Below, piece by piece: positions 5,964-46,891 of a stretch of 56,778 bases of DNA. Source of the stretch: a virus. Its lineage: Duplodnaviria > Caudoviricetes. The notes beneath the pieces were generated by a model. It made no database searches. It was not told the origin of the DNA and was given only the letters and a program-made list of their open reading frames with translations. The number at the start of each line of letters is the position of its first letter. Position 1 is the stretch's first letter. Both the position numbers and the translations under genes were made by a program. The DNA lies in the IMG/VR virus record IMGVR_UViG_3300028840_002119, positions 1-56,778 of that record. One strand, written 5' to 3'.

Positions 5964-6428
5964 TTACTCGCCTATGGTGCGTTCCTCGATGACTGGCTCA
6001 GGCAATGCCTCAAGCTCACCCCACTTACGCGGTTTGATGATACCCTTGTAAGCCGCCTGCGATGCAGCCCAGGTGAGGAAGCCTTTGGCCAATGCCTGCC
6101 AGTAGGGTTCAATCCGTAGCCACACATCGGGCGGGACGAGCTGAAGCGCGATCTCTGCCAGCAACGGCAGCCCGATACTACAGCCGAACACGATCCAGGC
6201 CTTCTTTTTCTTCGGCAACTCCGTGAACTTTGGAAATTTCTCAAAGAGGAAGGCGAGGACAAAACCAGTACCCGCGCCACCCGCAAACATCCCCAACACT
6301 TCAACCAGAGAGGGCGTGTCTATTGGAATCGGAGGGATGTCACCGGACTGCGCCAACAACACAGCAGGAAAGATGAACAGCGCGAGGATGACGATCACAC
6401 TTACGAACAAACGGCGAATCATAGTCAA
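5964..6428 (-). CDS. Putative holin (multi-TM)
   Basis: 3-4 hydrophobic segments, charged C-terminus, AAGGAG SD. Confidence 0.6.
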   Translation of the reverse strand: MTMIRRLFVSVIVILALFIFPAVLLAQSGDIPPIPIDTPSLVEVLGMFAGGAGTGFVLAFLFEKFPKFTELPKKKKAWIVFGCSIGLPLLAEIALQLVPPDVWLRIEPYWQALAKGFLTWAASQAAYKGIIKPRKWGELEALPEPVIEERTIGE

Positions 6429-6475: not shown

Positions 6476-6512
6476 TCGGAAACTAAGTCTCAGTCAGGCG
6501 TTTCATGTTATG

Positions 6513-12956: not shown

Positions 12957-14150
12957 CTATCCTCGTATCTGTGTAGACAACGCGGCCAGCGCCTTGCTCC
13001 AATCGCCGGACGCCTTTGCCGCCGTTATCTCTGTAGAGACTGGCGGGTGCTTTTCTACATCTGGCGACACCCGTCCGGCCCCCTTCAACTGCCGTACCCG
13101 CGTCCAAAATTCCGTTGGACCTGGCACCGGCTCTTGAACTTCATCGGCCTGCGGAGTGACGCCTTCCGCATCCTCTCGCGGGAAGTAGTTATCCAGATCA
13201 GAGACGTCTTCGATCACCTCGCTTTCTTCATCTGGCGGCGGGTCGATGATGTCAGGCCGCGCCAGCACATTGTCAATCCAGAGCGCGTGTAACTCTACGC
13301 CCTTCATTCCGCTTTCACGGGCAACTTCCTCGTATGCGTTGCGTGCGTGCTGAATCGCCTTGAACTTACCGCGATCAAAGCCCCACTCGATGGCCTCGGC
13401 GTCGTCATTGAACGAAGTCGGGATAGCCTCTTGAAGTGCATCGCGTTCTTCTTCGGTCAGGCCGTCATAAACGGCGTGCTCGATCTTCTCAGGCATATCC
13501 AGCCACGTACCAGAATCGTCCCACAGGATGGGCACTTCCGGAAACGTGCGCCCACGTCGCGCCCATACGACCTTGATACCGCGCACGTCATCGGCACGCT
13601 TGACGATTTGCAGCTTCAAGTTCAAGCAGCGGAGCAAGCGCACCAACTCAGTCTTACTCACCGTCGCGCGCGTTTCCTTCTCGCCCTGACCATCGCGCCC
13701 ATCGTTGAGATGGTAAATCCAGAGTACATCCGTACCCCACCGCGTAACCACATCCTGCAACTGCGCCATCGCGATAGCCTTTGGTGCAAATGCAGCGGCG
13801 AGATTCTTTTCGCGCCCAGTTTTGTGCGCCTGCATCCCTTCGACTACCAGCGGTTTGATGATGGCCGTCAGGCTGTCCGTGACGATTGTCCGCACCCCAC
13901 TCCCTGGCATATTGGCCATGAGCAGTTGGGCGATGCGATCTGTGTCAACGTGGTCGGCGGGATTGTCGCTCAATTCATAGACAAGCGCATCGGTCACATC
14001 GAGCACTTCACGGAAGCGATGATCTGCATCGATCGGCAGAATCGGACTCCGCATCCGCATCGCAAAGGTGGTTTTCCCTCCACCTGGATACCCGACTAAC
14101 CCCCACAAGCGCGGGGGATAGTCGGTCTTCACCATTTTATTGAACGGCAT
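12957..14150 (-). CDS. P-loop NTPase, Sak4/AAA_24-like recombination protein
   Basis: Walker A GYPGGGKTT; Walker B TIVTDSLT. Confidence 0.7.
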   Translation of the reverse strand: MPFNKMVKTDYPPRLWGLVGYPGGGKTTFAMRMRSPILPIDADHRFREVLDVTDALVYELSDNPADHVDTDRIAQLLMANMPGSGVRTIVTDSLTAIIKPLVVEGMQAHKTGREKNLAAAFAPKAIAMAQLQDVVTRWGTDVLWIYHLNDGRDGQGEKETRATVSKTELVRLLRCLNLKLQIVKRADDVRGIKVVWARRGRTFPEVPILWDDSGTWLDMPEKIEHAVYDGLTEEERDALQEAIPTSFNDDAEAIEWGFDRGKFKAIQHARNAYEEVARESGMKGVELHALWIDNVLARPDIIDPPPDEESEVIEDVSDLDNYFPREDAEGVTPQADEVQEPVPGPTEFWTRVRQLKGAGRVSPDVEKHPPVSTEITAAKASGDWSKALAALSTQIRG

Positions 14151-14168
14151 AACTTTCTCCTTCCTCTC

Positions 14169-14600
14169 CTAGAACGGAATGTCACCCAATGGCTCAGGAC
14201 GATCTTCCAGCGCCATCTCCCACGGCGTAAGCGGCCATTCGCCCGCACGCCCAATCTTGACGACATACTTGCCCTGCCAAGCTCCAGGGCCGTAATACTT
14301 CTTCGCCTTGATGTCCACGATCTTGAGATCGTTTTCCAGCATCCACTCACTGATAGATTCTGGATTTGCTGACGGCAAACTACCAGACCAGCCAGTAGGC
14401 TGTTTGGCCTCAAGTAACGACAACTCTTCTTTCCCTAATCCTGCCCACGGCCTCGCAACAAAATCCTCGAATAGCTTCCAGGGCATATAAGTACGCGCCA
14501 CCAGTTGAAATACCGCAACCGGATACTGGCGTTCCTTGCGCCTCCACATCTTTTCTTCTTCAGTCAGTTTTCTTCCCATCGGCAGCCCCCGATACATCAA
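14169..14600 (-). CDS. Hypothetical protein ending in an SSB-like tail (GDIPF)
   Basis: C-terminus EDRPEPLGDIPF. Confidence 0.6.
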   Translation of the reverse strand: MMYRGLPMGRKLTEEEKMWRRKERQYPVAVFQLVARTYMPWKLFEDFVARPWAGLGKEELSLLEAKQPTGWSGSLPSANPESISEWMLENDLKIVDIKAKKYYGPGAWQGKYVVKIGRAGEWPLTPWEMALEDRPEPLGDIPF

Positions 14601-14970
14601 TATGACCTACAACGATTCCAACGGGCGACCACTCACCACGAGCAGCCGCCACGTCTCCCAACTCCGCTAAAGTGGTCGGCACCGGAGCGCCGTACCGGAT
14701 AGGAACATAGCACGTCCCGCGATCGGCAGTCAGCCTCACGCACCGGACTGTGTTCCGTTGAAACGATGCAACGATTGTCCAGTTTGAGGGACATCGGGCA
14801 TCCGTGTTCACTGCGCCATCGACGGCCTGTGCCTGCTCCCAAGTTTCGGGAACAGGCTTACCAGGGGCTAGATACACCCAATAGCAACGATCGCCATCGC
14901 AGAACTCAACGCACCGCTTACCGATGATGACTGGTGGCGTGCAGTCAGTATCAGCGACCTGGATGTTCAT
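14560..14970 (-). CDS. Hypothetical protein with internal duplication
   Basis: RCVEF..RCYWVYLAPGKPVPET resembles RCVRL..TCYVPIRYGAPVPTT. Confidence 0.6.
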   Translation of the reverse strand: MNIQVADTDCTPPVIIGKRCVEFCDGDRCYWVYLAPGKPVPETWEQAQAVDGAVNTDARCPSNWTIVASFQRNTVRCVRLTADRGTCYVPIRYGAPVPTTLAELGDVAAARGEWSPVGIVVGHIDVSGAADGKKTD

Positions 14971-15768
14971 CTAATCACGTTCCATCGGCTGAGAGTAAAG
15001 GAAGCGACCATCGTCGAAGGGGGAGACACACAAGTTACCAGCTAGCCGCCAGCCCTTTTCCATCAGCACCGAGACGACCTCGACCACAACGCCAGGAGAA
15101 GAAGACTCCACAATCTGATAGAACGGCTCTTCCTCTGCATCGGACTCTGTAGCCTCAACTTCAACCGTCTCGGGCATAGCCGCTTCATTAACCGCGTCGG
15201 ATTCCATAACTGCGGCCAGTCCTTCAAGCTCTCCGTAGAGGTCAATGCGCTCATAGGCCAGTGCCACCATCGAAGCCCACTCCTCGCTGTTCGACTTTCG
15301 AGACGTATACAAGTGGGTGACGCCATCATCCTGAACGTGATACCATCCATCTTCGAGATGTCCTTCCGGCTCGTAGATGTCCACCCGATACTTACCCTCG
15401 AAGTCCGTCGCCAGCGCGATAGCCGCAAGTAGGAGAGACTCGAATCTTACGGCAGTATCTTGACCATCTTTCCAGAATCGGAAGCTGGCCCAAAGCAGGG
15501 GCAAGTCCTCGATCTTGAACTGCACCCAGATCTGCCCTCTCTCATGGTCAATGAGCGGAGTTCGATCATAGGCCAACAAGGGCAACAAAGGGTCAGGAAC
15601 GATCGCCTTCAAAGCATCTTGGAACGCTCGAACGCGATCGGCAGCTTCGTCCACTCGCGCCTGTTCTACTGCGGCCTGACGCGCTTCCTCTTGCTGGCGT
15701 GCGTGAGACAACTGCGCCTCTCCCTTCGCCTGCATATCCTCAAGGCTCGTGTAGACCTTCTTCGTCAT
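14971..15768 (-). CDS. Hypothetical protein with C-terminal DUF1737-like domain
   Basis: YQIV...VSVLMEKGWRLAGN...YSQPM pattern. Confidence 0.6.
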   Translation of the reverse strand: MTKKVYTSLEDMQAKGEAQLSHARQQEEARQAAVEQARVDEAADRVRAFQDALKAIVPDPLLPLLAYDRTPLIDHERGQIWVQFKIEDLPLLWASFRFWKDGQDTAVRFESLLLAAIALATDFEGKYRVDIYEPEGHLEDGWYHVQDDGVTHLYTSRKSNSEEWASMVALAYERIDLYGELEGLAAVMESDAVNEAAMPETVEVEATESDAEEEPFYQIVESSSPGVVVEVVSVLMEKGWRLAGNLCVSPFDDGRFLYSQPMERD

Positions 15769-16049
15769 GCCGCCACCGCCAACCGAATCGGGTCATGCAC
15801 CGCGTCCATTCTGCGGGCAATCGCTGAGGCTCGCCCCAATACTTCGGGCGGACCAAAGCGATAGATAAGCTCGCTGAACAACCAGCAGTTGACATTGAGC
15901 GGGAAGACCGTCGGCGGATTGTCCCGATAGAACAACCGTAACCGATCTTCATACTGAGGCAGTAATGCCTCCACCGTCGCGGCGATCTGCTCTTCCGGCC
16001 CGTGAGCAGTAAGCGCCTCTTGCAACAAGGGAACTTCGTCTCTGAACAT
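15765..16049 (-). CDS. First gene of the leftward operon (94 aa)
   Basis: CGGAGGT SD following the leader terminator. Confidence 0.7.
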   Translation of the reverse strand: MFRDEVPLLQEALTAHGPEEQIAATVEALLPQYEDRLRLFYRDNPPTVFPLNVNCWLFSELIYRFGPPEVLGRASAIARRMDAVHDPIRLAVAA

Positions 16050-16074
16050 ACCTTTACCTCCGTTTTGAATTATG

Positions 16075-16106
16075 AAAAAACCCCCGCCGATGATTTTGCG
16101 AGGGTT
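16075..16106 (-). terminator. Attenuator terminator in the leftward leader
   Basis: AACCCTCGC-loop-GCGGGGGTT followed by TTTT. Confidence 0.7.
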
Positions 16107-16123
16107 GAATAAGATGTTACAAT
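16096..16123 (+). promoter_or_regulatory. Promoter for the small antisense RNA
   Basis: TTGCGA-16 bp-TACAAT with extended -10 TGT. Confidence 0.65.
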
Positions 16124-16129
16124 GATCTT

Positions 16130-16201
16130 ACCTACACCCGCCTATCTCGGTTGTGGGGAAAGTCACGATTAGGTTGCCGGACCTGATCGTGACTGTTTTT
16201 T
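16130..16201 (+). ncRNA. Predicted ~70-nt regulatory small RNA (two hairpins)
   Basis: Hairpin 1 with loop CCUAUCU; terminator AGTCACGATTAGGT-tgccgg-ACCTGATCGTGACT-G-T6; 16138-16150 is the exact reverse complement of 16424-16436. Confidence 0.72.
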
Positions 16202-16234
16202 CTGTTAAAGTTATTACGTAAGGGTACTACCTAT

Positions 16235-16263
16235 ATTATAGCATGGGTCACATTTCGTGTCAA
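16235..16263 (-). promoter_or_regulatory. Leftward promoter PL (perfect consensus)
   Basis: TTGACA-17 bp-TATAAT with TGC extension. Confidence 0.88.
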
Positions 16264-16279
16264 TAGAATGTATGTTCTA
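16264..16279. promoter_or_regulatory. LexA-like operator abutting the PL -35
   Basis: TAGAAT-GTAT-GTTCTA, one mismatch from AGAAC-N4-GTTCT. Confidence 0.55.
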
Positions 16280-16331
16280 TAAAAAGCGCGATCCAGGCAT
16301 GGCCTTTTCGAGATGACTTTTCGCGAAATGC

Positions 16332-16360
16332 TTGACAACGCTTCTGTTTTCCTGTAGAAT
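16332..16360 (+). promoter_or_regulatory. Rightward promoter PR
   Basis: TTGACA-17 bp-TAGAAT. Confidence 0.85.
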
Positions 16361-16455
16361 GAGTACATACCGAATCGTAATACCTCGATGCAGCCGGACA
16401 CTCATCGAAGGTCACAGACTTAGCCGAGATAGGCGGCGTTACCTGAGCACTTTAC

Positions 16456-16482
16456 ACCCTGCCTATTGGAGCAGGGTTTTTT
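16456..16482 (+). terminator. Attenuator terminator in the rightward (replication) leader
   Basis: ACCCTGC-ctattgga-GCAGGGT followed by TTTTT. Confidence 0.78.
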
Positions 16483-16504
16483 CATTCTTATGAAAGGGGT
16501 GCTT

Positions 16505-17275
16505 ATGACCATAGGAGCAATGTCCATGAATCCAGACTCAATTACCGTAAAACTCGCGGCAGAGCTTGCAGGCTACACCACGCACAATATCAGACGCCTA
16601 GCTAGAACGGGCGTTCTAAAAGCGGATAGGTTTGGTACAGCCTGGGCCATCGACCGGACAAGCCTACTCGATCATATCGCTGAAAACAAGCGCTTAGGGC
16701 AAGGCAAGCACGCAGCAAACCGCTACACGAAGGACTTGGGAATGATACAGAAGCTAGACCTCACCGAAGCACTGGTCCTCGACACCGAGACGACCGGACT
16801 AGGCAATATGGACCAGATCGTAGAGATCGCCATCATCGACATGACCGGCAATCTGATCTTACAATCCCTGCTGAACCCCACCATCGCAATGACTCAGCGC
16901 GCCTATGAAGTCCATCGCATCGGCCCATCGGAGCTAGATGCTGCCCCACTCTTCCCCACCATCTGGCCTGAGCTTATCCGCGTCCTGAATGGTAAGAAGG
17001 TCATTGCTTACAACGCCAACTTCGATATGCGGATGATCGCCCAAACCGCGCACGCCTTCGACCTGGACCTCACGCTCTTGGATTGCGACTTCCATTGTGC
17101 GATGCGCGCCTACGCGATGTATCGCGGCGGCAGGCGCAACTACAAGCTGACCACGGCCTGTGCCGCGATGTCTGTCACTGGGCTTCCCGAAGGGATGCAG
17201 CCCCACCGCGCCCAAGCGGACGCTGAACTGACGCGCCAACTCGTGCTGAAGATGTTGGAGACGCCAGCAGACTAG
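16505..17275 (+). CDS. Excisionase-type HTH fused to a DEDDh 3'-5' exonuclease
   Basis: ITVKLAAELAGYTTHNIRRL...FGTAWAID; VLDTETTG, AYNANFD, HRAQADA. Start uncertain (16505, 16520 or 16526). Confidence 0.85.
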   Translation: MTIGAMSMNPDSITVKLAAELAGYTTHNIRRLARTGVLKADRFGTAWAIDRTSLLDHIAENKRLGQGKHAANRYTKDLGMIQKLDLTEALVLDTETTGLGNMDQIVEIAIIDMTGNLILQSLLNPTIAMTQRAYEVHRIGPSELDAAPLFPTIWPELIRVLNGKKVIAYNANFDMRMIAQTAHAFDLDLTLLDCDFHCAMRAYAMYRGGRRNYKLTTACAAMSVTGLPEGMQPHRAQADAELTRQLVLKMLETPAD

Positions 17276-17284
17276 GAACCCGCT

Positions 17285-18259
17285 ATGAATAACGAGATCG
17301 TTTTAGAGGAAAGTCCGCGCACGCACTTCCAGATGCTTCCGCACCTCATTGATGATATGGGCCTGGATGTCTACGAGCATCGCCTGTACTGCCATCTGCG
17401 GCGTGTCGCCGGAGAACACGGCAAGTGCTGGCAGACTACGCGCACCCTCGCCGCAGCCTGTAACATGAGCGTGGGTAAAGTATCTCAGGCAAAGCAAAGC
17501 CTCGAACAGCGCGGGCTGATCGTCATCGCGGAGCAAGCTGCCCCTGGCGGTATCTCGCACCATATCACGATCGCGGACATCTGGCGCGAGAATCACGAAC
17601 GCTATAGCGTTCACCAGGTGAACGCAAGTGATAGCGTTCAGGACGTGAACGCAAAAAATGGCAGGGTTCAGGACGTGAACGCAATGCGTTCACCAGGTGA
17701 ACCAAAGAATATCCCTTCTAAGAATACCACTGAACATGAAGAAGATGGAGAGGGAGAAGGCGCACAAGTGCGCCCCCCTGACTGCCTACCGAATCAATTC
17801 GATCTTTCTGTAAAGGCTATCAAAAAAATGAAGTTCAGGCGGGCAGAGTATTTCGCCATCCTCGAAGCGGAGCAGGGACGCGAGAAGCCGCGCAGCACCC
17901 TAATTGACCATATCGAGAGTAAGCTGTCAGTGAATCAGCATCCGGCCGTAGCGATCTTTCGTGAGCAGACGCATTACTATCCTCGCGGAGAATGGCGTCA
18001 GAAAGTCGCTGATACGGTCGGAGAGCAGCCAGTAGCCCTCGACCTATGGGAAAGGGTCTGCGAAGGTTGGGTCGGCATAGGCTGGAATGTACTCAACACG
18101 AAGGGGATGCTTGACTACTGGGCACGCGGAGAAATACCAGGGGAAGATCGACCGGAGAAACAGCCAACGGGCGATAATGCGTTCGAGGAGTTCGAGCGAC
18201 TGACCGGACTTAGGCAAGTCCAAAGGGTAGAGGAAAATGTCACCTACGTTGACGCATGA
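17285..18259 (+). CDS. Replication initiator (N-terminal winged HTH, lambda O-like organisation)
   Basis: RLYCHL...CWQTTRTLAAACNMSVGKVSQAKQSLEQRGLI; internal iterons. Confidence 0.8.
   Translation: MNNEIVLEESPRTHFQMLPHLIDDMGLDVYEHRLYCHLRRVAGEHGKCWQTTRTLAAACNMSVGKVSQAKQSLEQRGLIVIAEQAAPGGISHHITIADIWRENHERYSVHQVNASDSVQDVNAKNGRVQDVNAMRSPGEPKNIPSKNTTEHEEDGEGEGAQVRPPDCLPNQFDLSVKAIKKMKFRRAEYFAILEAEQGREKPRSTLIDHIESKLSVNQHPAVAIFREQTHYYPRGEWRQKVADTVGEQPVALDLWERVCEGWVGIGWNVLNTKGMLDYWARGEIPGEDRPEKQPTGDNAFEEFERLTGLRQVQRVEENVTYVDA
17607..17704. repeat. Four 19-bp palindromic iterons, putative replication origin
   Basis: GCGTTCA-N5-TGAACGC-like units at 17607, 17634, 17664 and 17686, followed by A-rich sequence. 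Confidence 0.8.
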
Positions 18260-18773
18260 CGAACTACAACGTTATATGGCCATAAAGATGCTGGCCGCAG
18301 GCTTCCCATCGAACGCGCACAAGGTCACAGTTGCCACCATCGCGATGTACATGGCCTTGCTCTCCGATATTCCGATTGAAAGTCTGGAAGCGGCTGTGCT
18401 ATGGTGCGGAGCGCACTACAAGTTCTTCCCTGCCGTCGAAGAAATACGCGAGGCCGCACTAATCAAGGTCAACCCGCCACCGTTGGACATCGAAGCCTGG
18501 GCAGAAGTTCAGGACACGGAACTCATCGGAGGATGGCAGCTTCCAGAGTTTTCGCACCCGCTTATCACGCGCACCGTCGAACTTCTCGAATGGTATCGAA
18601 TTGTCCGCAATAGGCACCAGGACGCGATGCGCGTCGAGTTCATCAAAGCGTACAACCGCGTTGTAGCTCGTGAAGCCGAGCGCGCGATTGCCATCACCGA
18701 CACGGAAGGGGCATGGGAATCGCTATCCACCCTCGTCTCGAAGATGAAGGCTTTACCTGGGGTGGCTGAGTGA
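18237..18773 (+). CDS. Helicase loader/inhibitor-like protein (G39P-like)
   Basis: YMALLSDIP...KFFPAVEEIR pattern; follows the initiator gene. Confidence 0.65.
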   Translation: MSPTLTHDELQRYMAIKMLAAGFPSNAHKVTVATIAMYMALLSDIPIESLEAAVLWCGAHYKFFPAVEEIREAALIKVNPPPLDIEAWAEVQDTELIGGWQLPEFSHPLITRTVELLEWYRIVRNRHQDAMRVEFIKAYNRVVAREAERAIAITDTEGAWESLSTLVSKMKALPGVAE

Positions 18774-18937
18774 TGGACAAGTTCATCATCTTGGGCTCGA
18801 TCTGCATCGCAGCGGCAATACTCGCCTACGTCGCGCAATATATCGACCGCAACGCGCCATACCAATGCCCAGAGTGCGGAGAGATCATCGACGAATGGCA
18901 CACCTGCCCATCCTGCGGGTGGGAATTCAAATTGTAA
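18773..18937 (+). CDS. Small membrane-anchored zinc-ribbon protein (54 aa)
   Basis: Hand translation: TM segment then CPECG...CPSCG; TGATG overlap with the upstream gene. Confidence 0.6.
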   Translation: MDKFIILGSICIAAAILAYVAQYIDRNAPYQCPECGEIIDEWHTCPSCGWEFKL

Positions 18938-18974
18938 GACTGTTATTTTGTAATTAGAAGGGGAGGGATCGACT

Positions 18975-19337
18975 ATGAAGAACGGATTACCTTATATGAT
19001 TTGGTGGTTGTCTCGAAACGCTTGCCAGCAAGTTAACTTTTTGCTCGGTCAAGGGAATGAAGTCGTCGCCAATCTACCACCTTACATCCTGTGTGAAGTT
19101 TGGAAGCGATTCGGGCATCCTGGCCGTGGTCAGCTATCGGTCGCCCCTCACATTCCAGTAAAGGAAGTCACGGAATGGAAAACGGGTGACGGCGTAGACG
19201 TCGAAGCCCTCGACTGCGGCGGCATTGTGATCGAGCAGGAACACGTCAACCAGATAGTGGGGCTACCAGGGTTCATAACTGACCTAAGCCTCAACATCTT
19301 CACCTTAGACGAGGGGGACGGCGATGGAGCTGGCTAG
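18975..19337 (+). CDS. Hypothetical protein (120 aa)
   Basis: GGGAGGG SD; operon context. Confidence 0.65.
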   Translation: MKNGLPYMIWWLSRNACQQVNFLLGQGNEVVANLPPYILCEVWKRFGHPGRGQLSVAPHIPVKEVTEWKTGDGVDVEALDCGGIVIEQEHVNQIVGLPGFITDLSLNIFTLDEGDGDGAG

Positions 19338-46821: not shown

Positions 46822-46891
46822 CTTTGTCTCAGTCAGGCTTTACGCTCTAACACGAGCGTCAACAACTAAACAGCGTCAGCCATCTGCTGTT

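Follow-up and report, generated by a model that had tools for sequence, protein, structure and literature searches.

Divergent early leaders of a tailed phage with a duplicated 13-nt box and a predicted antisense RNA: a candidate for transcription attenuation in cis and in trans

Counter-transcript attenuation as in pIP501 is also the mechanism class of the plasmids pT181 and pAMbeta1. P4 CI (seqA/seqC), P1/P7 c4 and N15 CA are RNAs which present their pairing bases in a loop, pair with two leader targets and block downstream early or antirepressor genes. The P4 and N15 RNAs work by premature termination without a classical repressor, and P4 CI, P1 c4 and N15 CA are all processed from the same-strand leader that they control, with both targets in one operon. 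The nut elements of lambda and the put elements of HK022 modify RNA polymerase, with N or without it, and thereby promote read-through. For pIP501, PMC4981023 states that RNAIII induces attenuation in the repR leader and that convergent transcription starting at the mRNA promoter depresses the RNAIII promoter. The c4 RNA of P1/P7 is described in PMC12197685, and according to PMC2879508 RnaG of Shigella flexneri is a cis antisense RNA which starts from a convergent promoter and promotes premature termination of the sense icsA mRNA. Here, we analyze a divergent early control region, about 450 bp of parts, in the record IMGVR_UViG_3300028840_002119 of an uncultured virus, a complete genome of 56,778 bp with direct terminal repeats; this entire stretch is called the window in the following.

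Sequence elements and alternative folds of the region were computed, and from these we infer that a small RNA is made, that it binds and causes termination, and that it has a biological role. In our model, to which we give an even chance, an antisense RNA would attenuate both early operons, the left one in cis and the right one in trans; the action in trans on the right operon, which holds a replication initiator, is probable. The best reading of the predicted folds is antisense-RNA-driven transcription attenuation of the pT181/pIP501 kind.

Two early promoters stand back to back in the region, namely PL (16235..16263, - strand; TTGACA-17-TATAAT, 12/12 matches, with TG upstream and a predicted start at ~16228) and PR (16332..16360, + strand; TTGACA-17-TAGAAT, 11/12 matches, predicted start at ~16367). 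Both leaders carry the 13-nucleotide (nt) box CCGAGAUAGGCGG upstream of the leader terminator: the left copy (16138..16150, - strand) is the core of the predicted left antiterminator, and the right copy (16424..16436, + strand) has a stem GCCG/CGGC and a 7-nt loop AGAUAGG. Together they form a perfect 13-nt inverted repeat, the sole pair without mismatch in the whole window, for which we estimate a chance expectation of about 0.002 within ~460 bp. The leaders share further sequence. A 5' leader block TACC-N4-CGTAATA (16209..16226 on the - strand, equal to 16368-16385 on the + strand) has 15 invariant positions among the first 23 alignment columns and lies in the starting ~20 nt of both early transcripts, and a second perfect inverted repeat of 12 nt (16072-16083 / 16474-16485) links the tails of the terminators.

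Between PL and the first left gene, a transcription unit is predicted on the opposite strand. Its candidate promoter P3 (16096..16123, + strand; TTGCGA-16-TACAAT, 9/12 matches, extended -10 TG) sits within the DNA encoding the left-leader terminator and is convergent with PL at a distance of ~100 bp. The end of its -10 element is followed after 7 nt by the first of two hairpins of a predicted antisense RNA of ~72 nt (16130..16201, + strand). Hairpin 1 (16131-16157, + strand) exposes a 7-nt loop CCUAUCU at 16141-16147, and the terminator hairpin (16161-16194, + strand) has 15 pairs followed by GTTTTTTCTG, with a U-run at 16196-16201. The fold of 16130-16203 has a free energy of -35.5 kcal/mol (z = -6.2), and none of 200 shuffles was as good; the complementary strand reaches -24.7 kcal/mol, an advantage of 10.8 kcal/mol for the + strand, on which 3/3 G-U pairs of the unit are found. 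Both this advantage and the G-U bias fit selection on a + strand RNA. Further, no + strand gene lies upstream of the unit, and its strong + strand terminator therefore needs some transcript to end.

Loop and stem of hairpin 1 are the complement of the box at 16138-16150 (-) and at 16424-16436 (+). A duplex scan of the small RNA across the whole genome was uninformative, as such a scan ignores intramolecular structure, and opening-energy calculations took its place. Hairpin 1 forms a predicted duplex of -31.8 kcal/mol with the right box region, matched by 0 of 2000 shuffles. The 7-nt loops are open in both partners, with opening costs of 0.06 and 0.56 kcal/mol, and the duplex of the 13-mer yields -25.4 kcal/mol against an opening cost of ~12.6 kcal/mol. 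Cofolding gives -78.6 kcal/mol against -66.5 kcal/mol for the monomers, thus a gain of ~12 kcal/mol, and the right terminator stays formed. An earlier note on this DNA, made from the sequence alone, had placed the promoters, the leader terminators, the boxes and the P3-terminator unit where we find them. It had also described a ~70-nt RNA antisense to the left leader with a 13-nt match to the right one, which corresponds to the 72-nt unit and the perfect box repeat, and the loop CCUAUCU facing the loop AGAUAGG, which is indeed a 7-nt loop in the predicted fold, with both loops predicted to be open.

The evidence that carries the model is clearest in the left leader. Over 16130-16201, the left leader RNA (16050..16228, - strand) is the full complement of the small RNA. 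Its intrinsic terminator (16075..16106, - strand; AACCCUCGC / GCGGGGGUU, a 9-pair hairpin with a 10-nt loop and a U-run) precedes by 13 nt the GGAGG ribosome-binding site for the gene at 15765-16049 and was missed by the terminator scanner, because its loop exceeds the 8-nt limit of that program. The free left leader is predicted to be antiterminated, with a minimum free energy (MFE) of -48.3 kcal/mol (z -4.26) compared with -40.3 kcal/mol when the terminator is forced. In the antiterminated fold, the segment 16157..16135, centred on the box, pairs with 16106..16082, and the U-run is taken up by an A-run farther upstream. With the box blocked, the terminator forms in folding as a 9-pair hairpin plus U-run: the probability of the terminator pair C16103-G16082 is 0.012 in the free leader, 0.999 when the 13-mer alone is blocked and 1.0 when the entire stretch complementary to the small RNA is blocked. 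A 13-nt block slid along the leader flips the fold only over 16126-16156, which is the complement of hairpin 1. The complementarity of the left box to its own terminator (-22.7 kcal/mol) exceeds that of shuffled sequences (-14.5 +/- 3.5 kcal/mol; 56 of 2000 as good). This predicted behavior is the logic of counter-transcript-driven attenuation.

For the right leader RNA (16367..16504, + strand), a similar arrangement is predicted. Its intrinsic terminator (16456..16483, + strand; ACCCUGC / GCAGGGU, then U6) was called by the scanner at 16456-16477 with 7 pairs followed by TTTTTC. The 5' arm and loop of this terminator (16459-16469) are the antiterminator partner of the box. For nascent RNAs ending at 16466-16474, the MFE structure is the helix 16429-16436 : 16459-16466, which is extended by 16424-16426 : 16467-16469 and covers the 5' arm of the terminator. 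Pairing of the right box with its own terminator amounts to -15.0 kcal/mol against -9.5 +/- 2.1 kcal/mol in shuffles (44 of 2000 as good). As the box of each leader can pair with the 5' arm of its terminator, covering the box favors termination in the predicted folds. A real resemblance exists between TACACCCGCCTAT and TACACCCTGCCTAT, for which the earlier note had proposed mimicry.

Taken as a mechanism, the model would run as follows. P3 would make, from the + strand (16130-16201), an RNA of ~72 nt that is antisense to the PL leader. In each early leader the box would normally pair with the 5' arm of the terminator and thus act as antiterminator, stable in the left leader but transient and co-transcriptional in the right one. 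The 7-nt apical loop of the small RNA would kiss the box loop, whereupon pairing could grow to 13-16 bp; on the left leader the duplex could extend to ~72 bp. With the box withdrawn, the terminator hairpin would form and RNA polymerase would halt ahead of the gene; in the right leader, the small RNA would remove the sole competitor of the terminator. The left operon with its recombination, ParB and PRTRC-like genes would be hit in cis and the right operon with exonuclease and replication initiator in trans. Activity of PL should depress P3, as in pIP501, because the much stronger PL faces P3 from a distance of ~100 bp, and early transcription and the small RNA would consequently inhibit each other. 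Early shut-off, dosage control or maintenance are candidates for the biological role, which may serve lysogeny, maintenance as a plasmid or just the timing of a lytic program.

Several observations have to be set against this model, beginning with the RNA itself. No RNA run on record contains this DNA. The sequence is present in three DNA metagenome runs (sediment or seawater), and contigs from these over 14000-19000 are identical to the window and thus offer no natural variants. The region 15500-17000 holds 4 promoter-like sites compared with 0.9 +/- 0.9 in shuffles; genome-wide, 9/12 promoter matches number 32 against ~31 expected from shuffles, which makes P3 unremarkable when taken alone. 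The support for P3 is therefore positional, and it is the least secure element of the set. Moreover, searches of phage, plasmid, viral and metagenome collections found no relatives carrying the region. A blastn search of 15700-16900 against phage and plasmid collections gave no match, exact-pattern scans for paired boxes in viral_contigs and genome_contigs retrieved nothing, and no relative with the 265-amino-acid (aa) left gene, the exonuclease, the terminase or the Rep-like replication initiator was present in viral_contigs. Besides itself, this initiator has four homologs, and an alignment search with it gave 64 loci (59 metagenome and 5 viral). A Rep relative, P0122, has 50% identity and is encoded on 14 Logan contigs of up to 16.7 kb. 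Comparing 16050-16510 with these 64 loci by blastn and nhmmer produced matches at chance level only (E >= 1.4). A second gene is shared by only one of them (L002), the upstream 1.7 kb of which contain no divergent control region. Divergent gaps of at least 200 nt occur 11 times among the 64 loci, none of comparable design; one such gap, in L043, with a terminator on one strand (+), was inspected and dismissed. Long-range inverted repeats of at least 12 nt were found 14 times across these loci.

A second difficulty is the right leader. Without any small RNA, the full right leader already terminates in the predicted fold (P = 0.992; -31.0 vs -27.1 kcal/mol), so that the effect added by the small RNA could be small, or a positive factor could be absent from the model. 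As the right leader terminates at equilibrium, an effect in trans depends on the transient co-transcriptional antiterminator, and as the terminator wins once its 3' arm has been made, read-through depends on kinetics or on a further helper. The antiterminator 16429-16436 : 16459-16466, put forward in the earlier note, stands as the MFE structure of the nascent ends named above and loses at equilibrium. As for the claim that the small RNA forces termination in both operons, the left switch operates in silico, and the right half of the claim is weaker than proposed, as termination occurs there without the RNA. The small RNA might act in cis on the left leader only, as an ordinary counter-transcript. 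The right leader would then be a self-contained attenuator or a paralogous inverted copy that is governed otherwise, for instance through a host factor, the speed of the polymerase or the translation of its first gene. The clean predicted switch on the left, whereas the right side terminates regardless, speaks for this restriction to cis, as do the three blocks common to the leaders (5' block, box and terminator tail), which fit an inverted duplication, and the flank of the right terminator, which is a near copy of hairpin 1 of the small RNA. On the other hand, the 13-mer has been kept perfectly amid diverged surroundings, which argues for selection on the exact sequence in both leaders; the loop of the right box is open, with a predicted net binding of about -12 kcal/mol; and shuffles rarely reach the pairing energy of the right box with its own terminator arm. 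On balance, we regard an action in cis only as unlikely.

Two observations on the right leader stand apart from this question. The 5' flank of the right terminator (16453-16469, + strand) pairs with the left box region (16132-16160, - strand) at -22.8 kcal/mol (2 of 2000 shuffles), compared with -15.0 kcal/mol for its own box; in principle, left-leader RNA could thus antiterminate the right leader in trans, but a leftover of duplication may equally account for the match. Further, in a full-length fold of the right leader (16443-16504), GAGCACUUU pairs with the AAAGGGGUGCUU segment holding the likely ribosome-binding site for the start at 16505, and read-through transcripts may, if this fold is correct, also be controlled at translation.

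The boxes also admit a reader other than an RNA. Since both boxes are identical, complementarity of the small RNA to the right box follows automatically from its complementarity to the left one, and box identity alone cannot separate an RNA from a protein as the common factor. The box hairpin could be a nut/boxB-like or RAT-like site that is read by an RNA-binding protein of phage or host, or by RNA polymerase as in HK022 put, and that sets read-through of the terminator, in which case the + strand unit would be incidental or mere fine-tuning. Identical short hairpins in divergent early leaders upstream of terminators are the hallmark of lambda nutL/nutR and HK022 putL/putR, and the right leader seems to require a positive factor for read-through. 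Moreover, two other leader-terminator modules on the - strand of this genome share a different 13-nt box, GCCUGACUGAGAC (6487-6499 and 46826-46838), directly upstream of strong terminators and preceding genes which start near 6428 and 46763. Even with 2 mismatches allowed, the genome contains no complement of GCCUGACUGAGAC; these modules have no antisense copy to work with and are not controllable by an antisense RNA of this phage. However, no N-like protein was found. Scans of Pfam, PHROGs and NCBIfam revealed no antiterminator family, an absence that is unproven given the many small open reading frames (ORFs) without family; a screen by isoelectric point (pI) and N-terminal sequence gave no convincing N-like candidate; and the protein encoded first behind PL is acidic (pI 5.0) and lacks an arginine-rich motif. 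Rfam contains no nut- or put-like match, and a box read by protein or polymerase leaves the opposite-strand promoter, the loop-presented anti-box, the strong terminator and the G-U bias of the + strand unexplained. We therefore consider this explanation improbable.

A search of the whole window against Rfam returned no family at gathering score. With E <= 10 on 15900-16600, sub-threshold matches only were obtained, namely RF02837 (19 and 12.8 bits) and RF01393 (16.4 bits). Those of RF02837 (gathering score 49.5) cover both leader segments, 16072-16159 (-) and 16412-16485 (+), and probably reflect merely the common hairpin-plus-terminator shape.

Finally, control at the DNA level has to be weighed. 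Candidate operators lie next to both -35 elements: a palindrome TAGAA-N6-TTCTA of 16 bp (16264..16279) abuts the -35 of PL, and the perfect 10-bp palindrome TTTCGCGAAA (16319..16328) lies 3 nt upstream of the -35 of PR. Together with the 5' leader block and a helix-turn-helix (HTH) domain on the first PR gene (HTH_17-like, E = 0.0015, under the Pfam cut-off), they make protein control possible. A dimeric repressor, host LexA-like or encoded by the phage, could act on these palindromes, on the block common to +3..+17 of both transcripts, or on both, and the 13-nt inverted repeat would be a pair of downstream operators for looping or a roadblock. In pIP501, the antisense RNA is combined with a repressor, CopR (PMC4981023). 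The 5' leader block itself could be such an operator or the closing helix of an RNA structure; in predicted nascent folds, the strand of this block pairs with a segment just 3' of the box (CUUAC:GUAAG left, GUAAU:GUUAC right). Several properties of the sequence disagree with control by a repressor, however. The 13-mer has no dyad beyond CCG...CGG and follows the start sites only after 70-90 nt, the palindromes are unlike each other and occur just once each in the genome, and the RNA antiterminator/terminator logic, seen twice, would be left unexplained. A reading of the PL palindrome as a LexA box was rejected for want of enrichment, as the genome has 18 sites of the GAAC-N4-GTTC type compared with an expectation of 24. 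Control mainly at the DNA level thus appears very unlikely to us. Nevertheless, the palindromes abutting both -35 elements, the common leader block and the HTH domain leave the terms "protein-free" and "replacing CI" of the earlier note unsupported.

Turning to the genes under control, nearly all genes of the phage are carried by the - strand, and a rightward block at 16.5-23 kb is the exception. The left operon starts with a gene for an acidic protein of 94 aa without family (15765..16049, - strand; pI 5.0), followed by three further ORFs without family, an AAA_24 ATPase, a ParB/Noc-like protein of 580 aa and a PRTRC-like set (E2, JAB and ThiF). For its second gene (14971-15768, - strand; 265 aa), a search of 1.84 billion representative proteins gave no relative at E <= 0.001. 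The right operon begins with a gene (16505..17275, + strand) encoding the HTH_17-like N-terminus and an RNase_T 3'-5' exonuclease, the best homologs of which show 43-45% identity confined to the exonuclease domain. This gene starts at 16505 or at 16526, the latter being implied by how the protein collection calls it, with AGGAG at 16513-16517. The second gene (17285-18259, + strand) encodes the DnaD/O-like (Rep-like) replication initiator, and an FtsK-like ATPase follows further along. In the initiator and its relatives (loci L002-L065), the conserved N-terminal HTH_36 domain is followed by a variable run of short repeats of the SVHxVNA type, and matching DNA repeats are found within the Rep-like gene of L029 and L063. 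Close relatives of the entire phage are absent from the viral, phage and plasmid collections searched.

No integrase, CI/Cro-like repressor or ParA was found in the scanned ORFs outside the structural block, with small family-less ORFs remaining. Nothing indicates a temperate phage, and the "lysogeny or copy-number switch" of the earlier note is consequently not retained. A far-reaching version of that idea would dispense with a repressor protein altogether: the small RNA and the face-to-face pair of P3 and PL would form a self-sustaining two-state switch, by which alone the genome would be silenced. Either PL would be on, with P3 occluded and both operons read through, or P3 would be on and both leaders would be terminated. 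We see only a slim chance for such a switch. If it were true, it would allow a silent genome, e.g., a ParB-carrying plasmid prophage, with immunity in trans to incoming copies, and RNA immunity as in P4 would then cover both arms of a complete tailed phage via the duplicated 13-nt key. The attenuation model with action in cis and in trans has implications of its own. If correct, the region would be a compact, fully specified example of one small RNA that terminates two divergent operons, the first in cis and the second in trans, via a duplicated 13-nt key. The control of plasmid copy number (pT181/pIP501) would be tied to that of early genes in phages (P4 CI, P1 c4), and RNA folds would largely suffice to build an early shut-off or maintenance decision. 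A use of the module as a small orthogonal termination switch is conceivable as well. Keyword searches of the literature turned up no phage small RNA attenuating two divergent operons, which cannot prove that none has been published.

Among the systems introduced at the beginning, the pIP501 type represents the mechanism class of the attenuation model. As there, a small antisense RNA has its own promoter within the leader and faces the mRNA promoter; in our case promoter and terminator of the unit, lying inside the left leader and convergent with PL, are predictions. Mutually exclusive antiterminator and terminator folds are predicted ahead of the first gene, and antisense binding would favor the terminator; for the right leader, the antiterminator is the MFE structure for the nascent ends at 16466-16474 only. 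The antisense promoter should lose activity under convergent transcription, and a replication initiator belongs to a controlled operon. The likeness to pT181/pIP501 drawn in the earlier note thus holds well for the predicted left leader and depends on a transient antiterminator in the right one. There are differences as well: our locus belongs to a tailed phage and not to a Gram-positive plasmid, and one RNA would serve two divergent operons. The target in cis is not the leader of a plasmid rep operon but that of the operon with the 94-aa ORF, AAA_24, ParB and the PRTRC-like genes; the Rep-like gene (17285-18259) could be reached only in trans, via the duplicated 13-nt box. Neither a sequence nor an Rfam relationship to the pIP501 type exists, and no CopR-like protein was identified here.

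With P4 CI, c4 and CA, the predicted small RNA shares loop bases complementary to two leader copies. Unlike these RNAs, it lies on the opposite strand, has its own promoter-like site and terminator, and finds its targets in two divergent operons. The covariance models C4 and isrK of Rfam do not match here; since a match is missing and the unit has the opposite strand and its own promoter, it is not a member of the C4 family, and membership in the family of P4 CI and P1 C4, which the earlier note had named as analogues, is not supported. As in our locus, the PL and PR leaders of lambda (nutL/nutR) and HK022 (putL/putR) carry hairpins that match and stand ahead of terminators, but the predicted logic of our locus is a local alternative fold with an antisense RNA promoting termination, and a small arginine-rich early antiterminator like lambda N did not appear in the scans. 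RnaG/icsA corresponds to the predicted left arm in being a termination-promoting cis antisense RNA from a convergent promoter. It concerns, though, a chromosomal or virulence-plasmid gene and a single target in cis, with no duplicated target in trans. What is distinctive of the region described here is the explicit terminator/antiterminator logic predicted on two divergent leaders.

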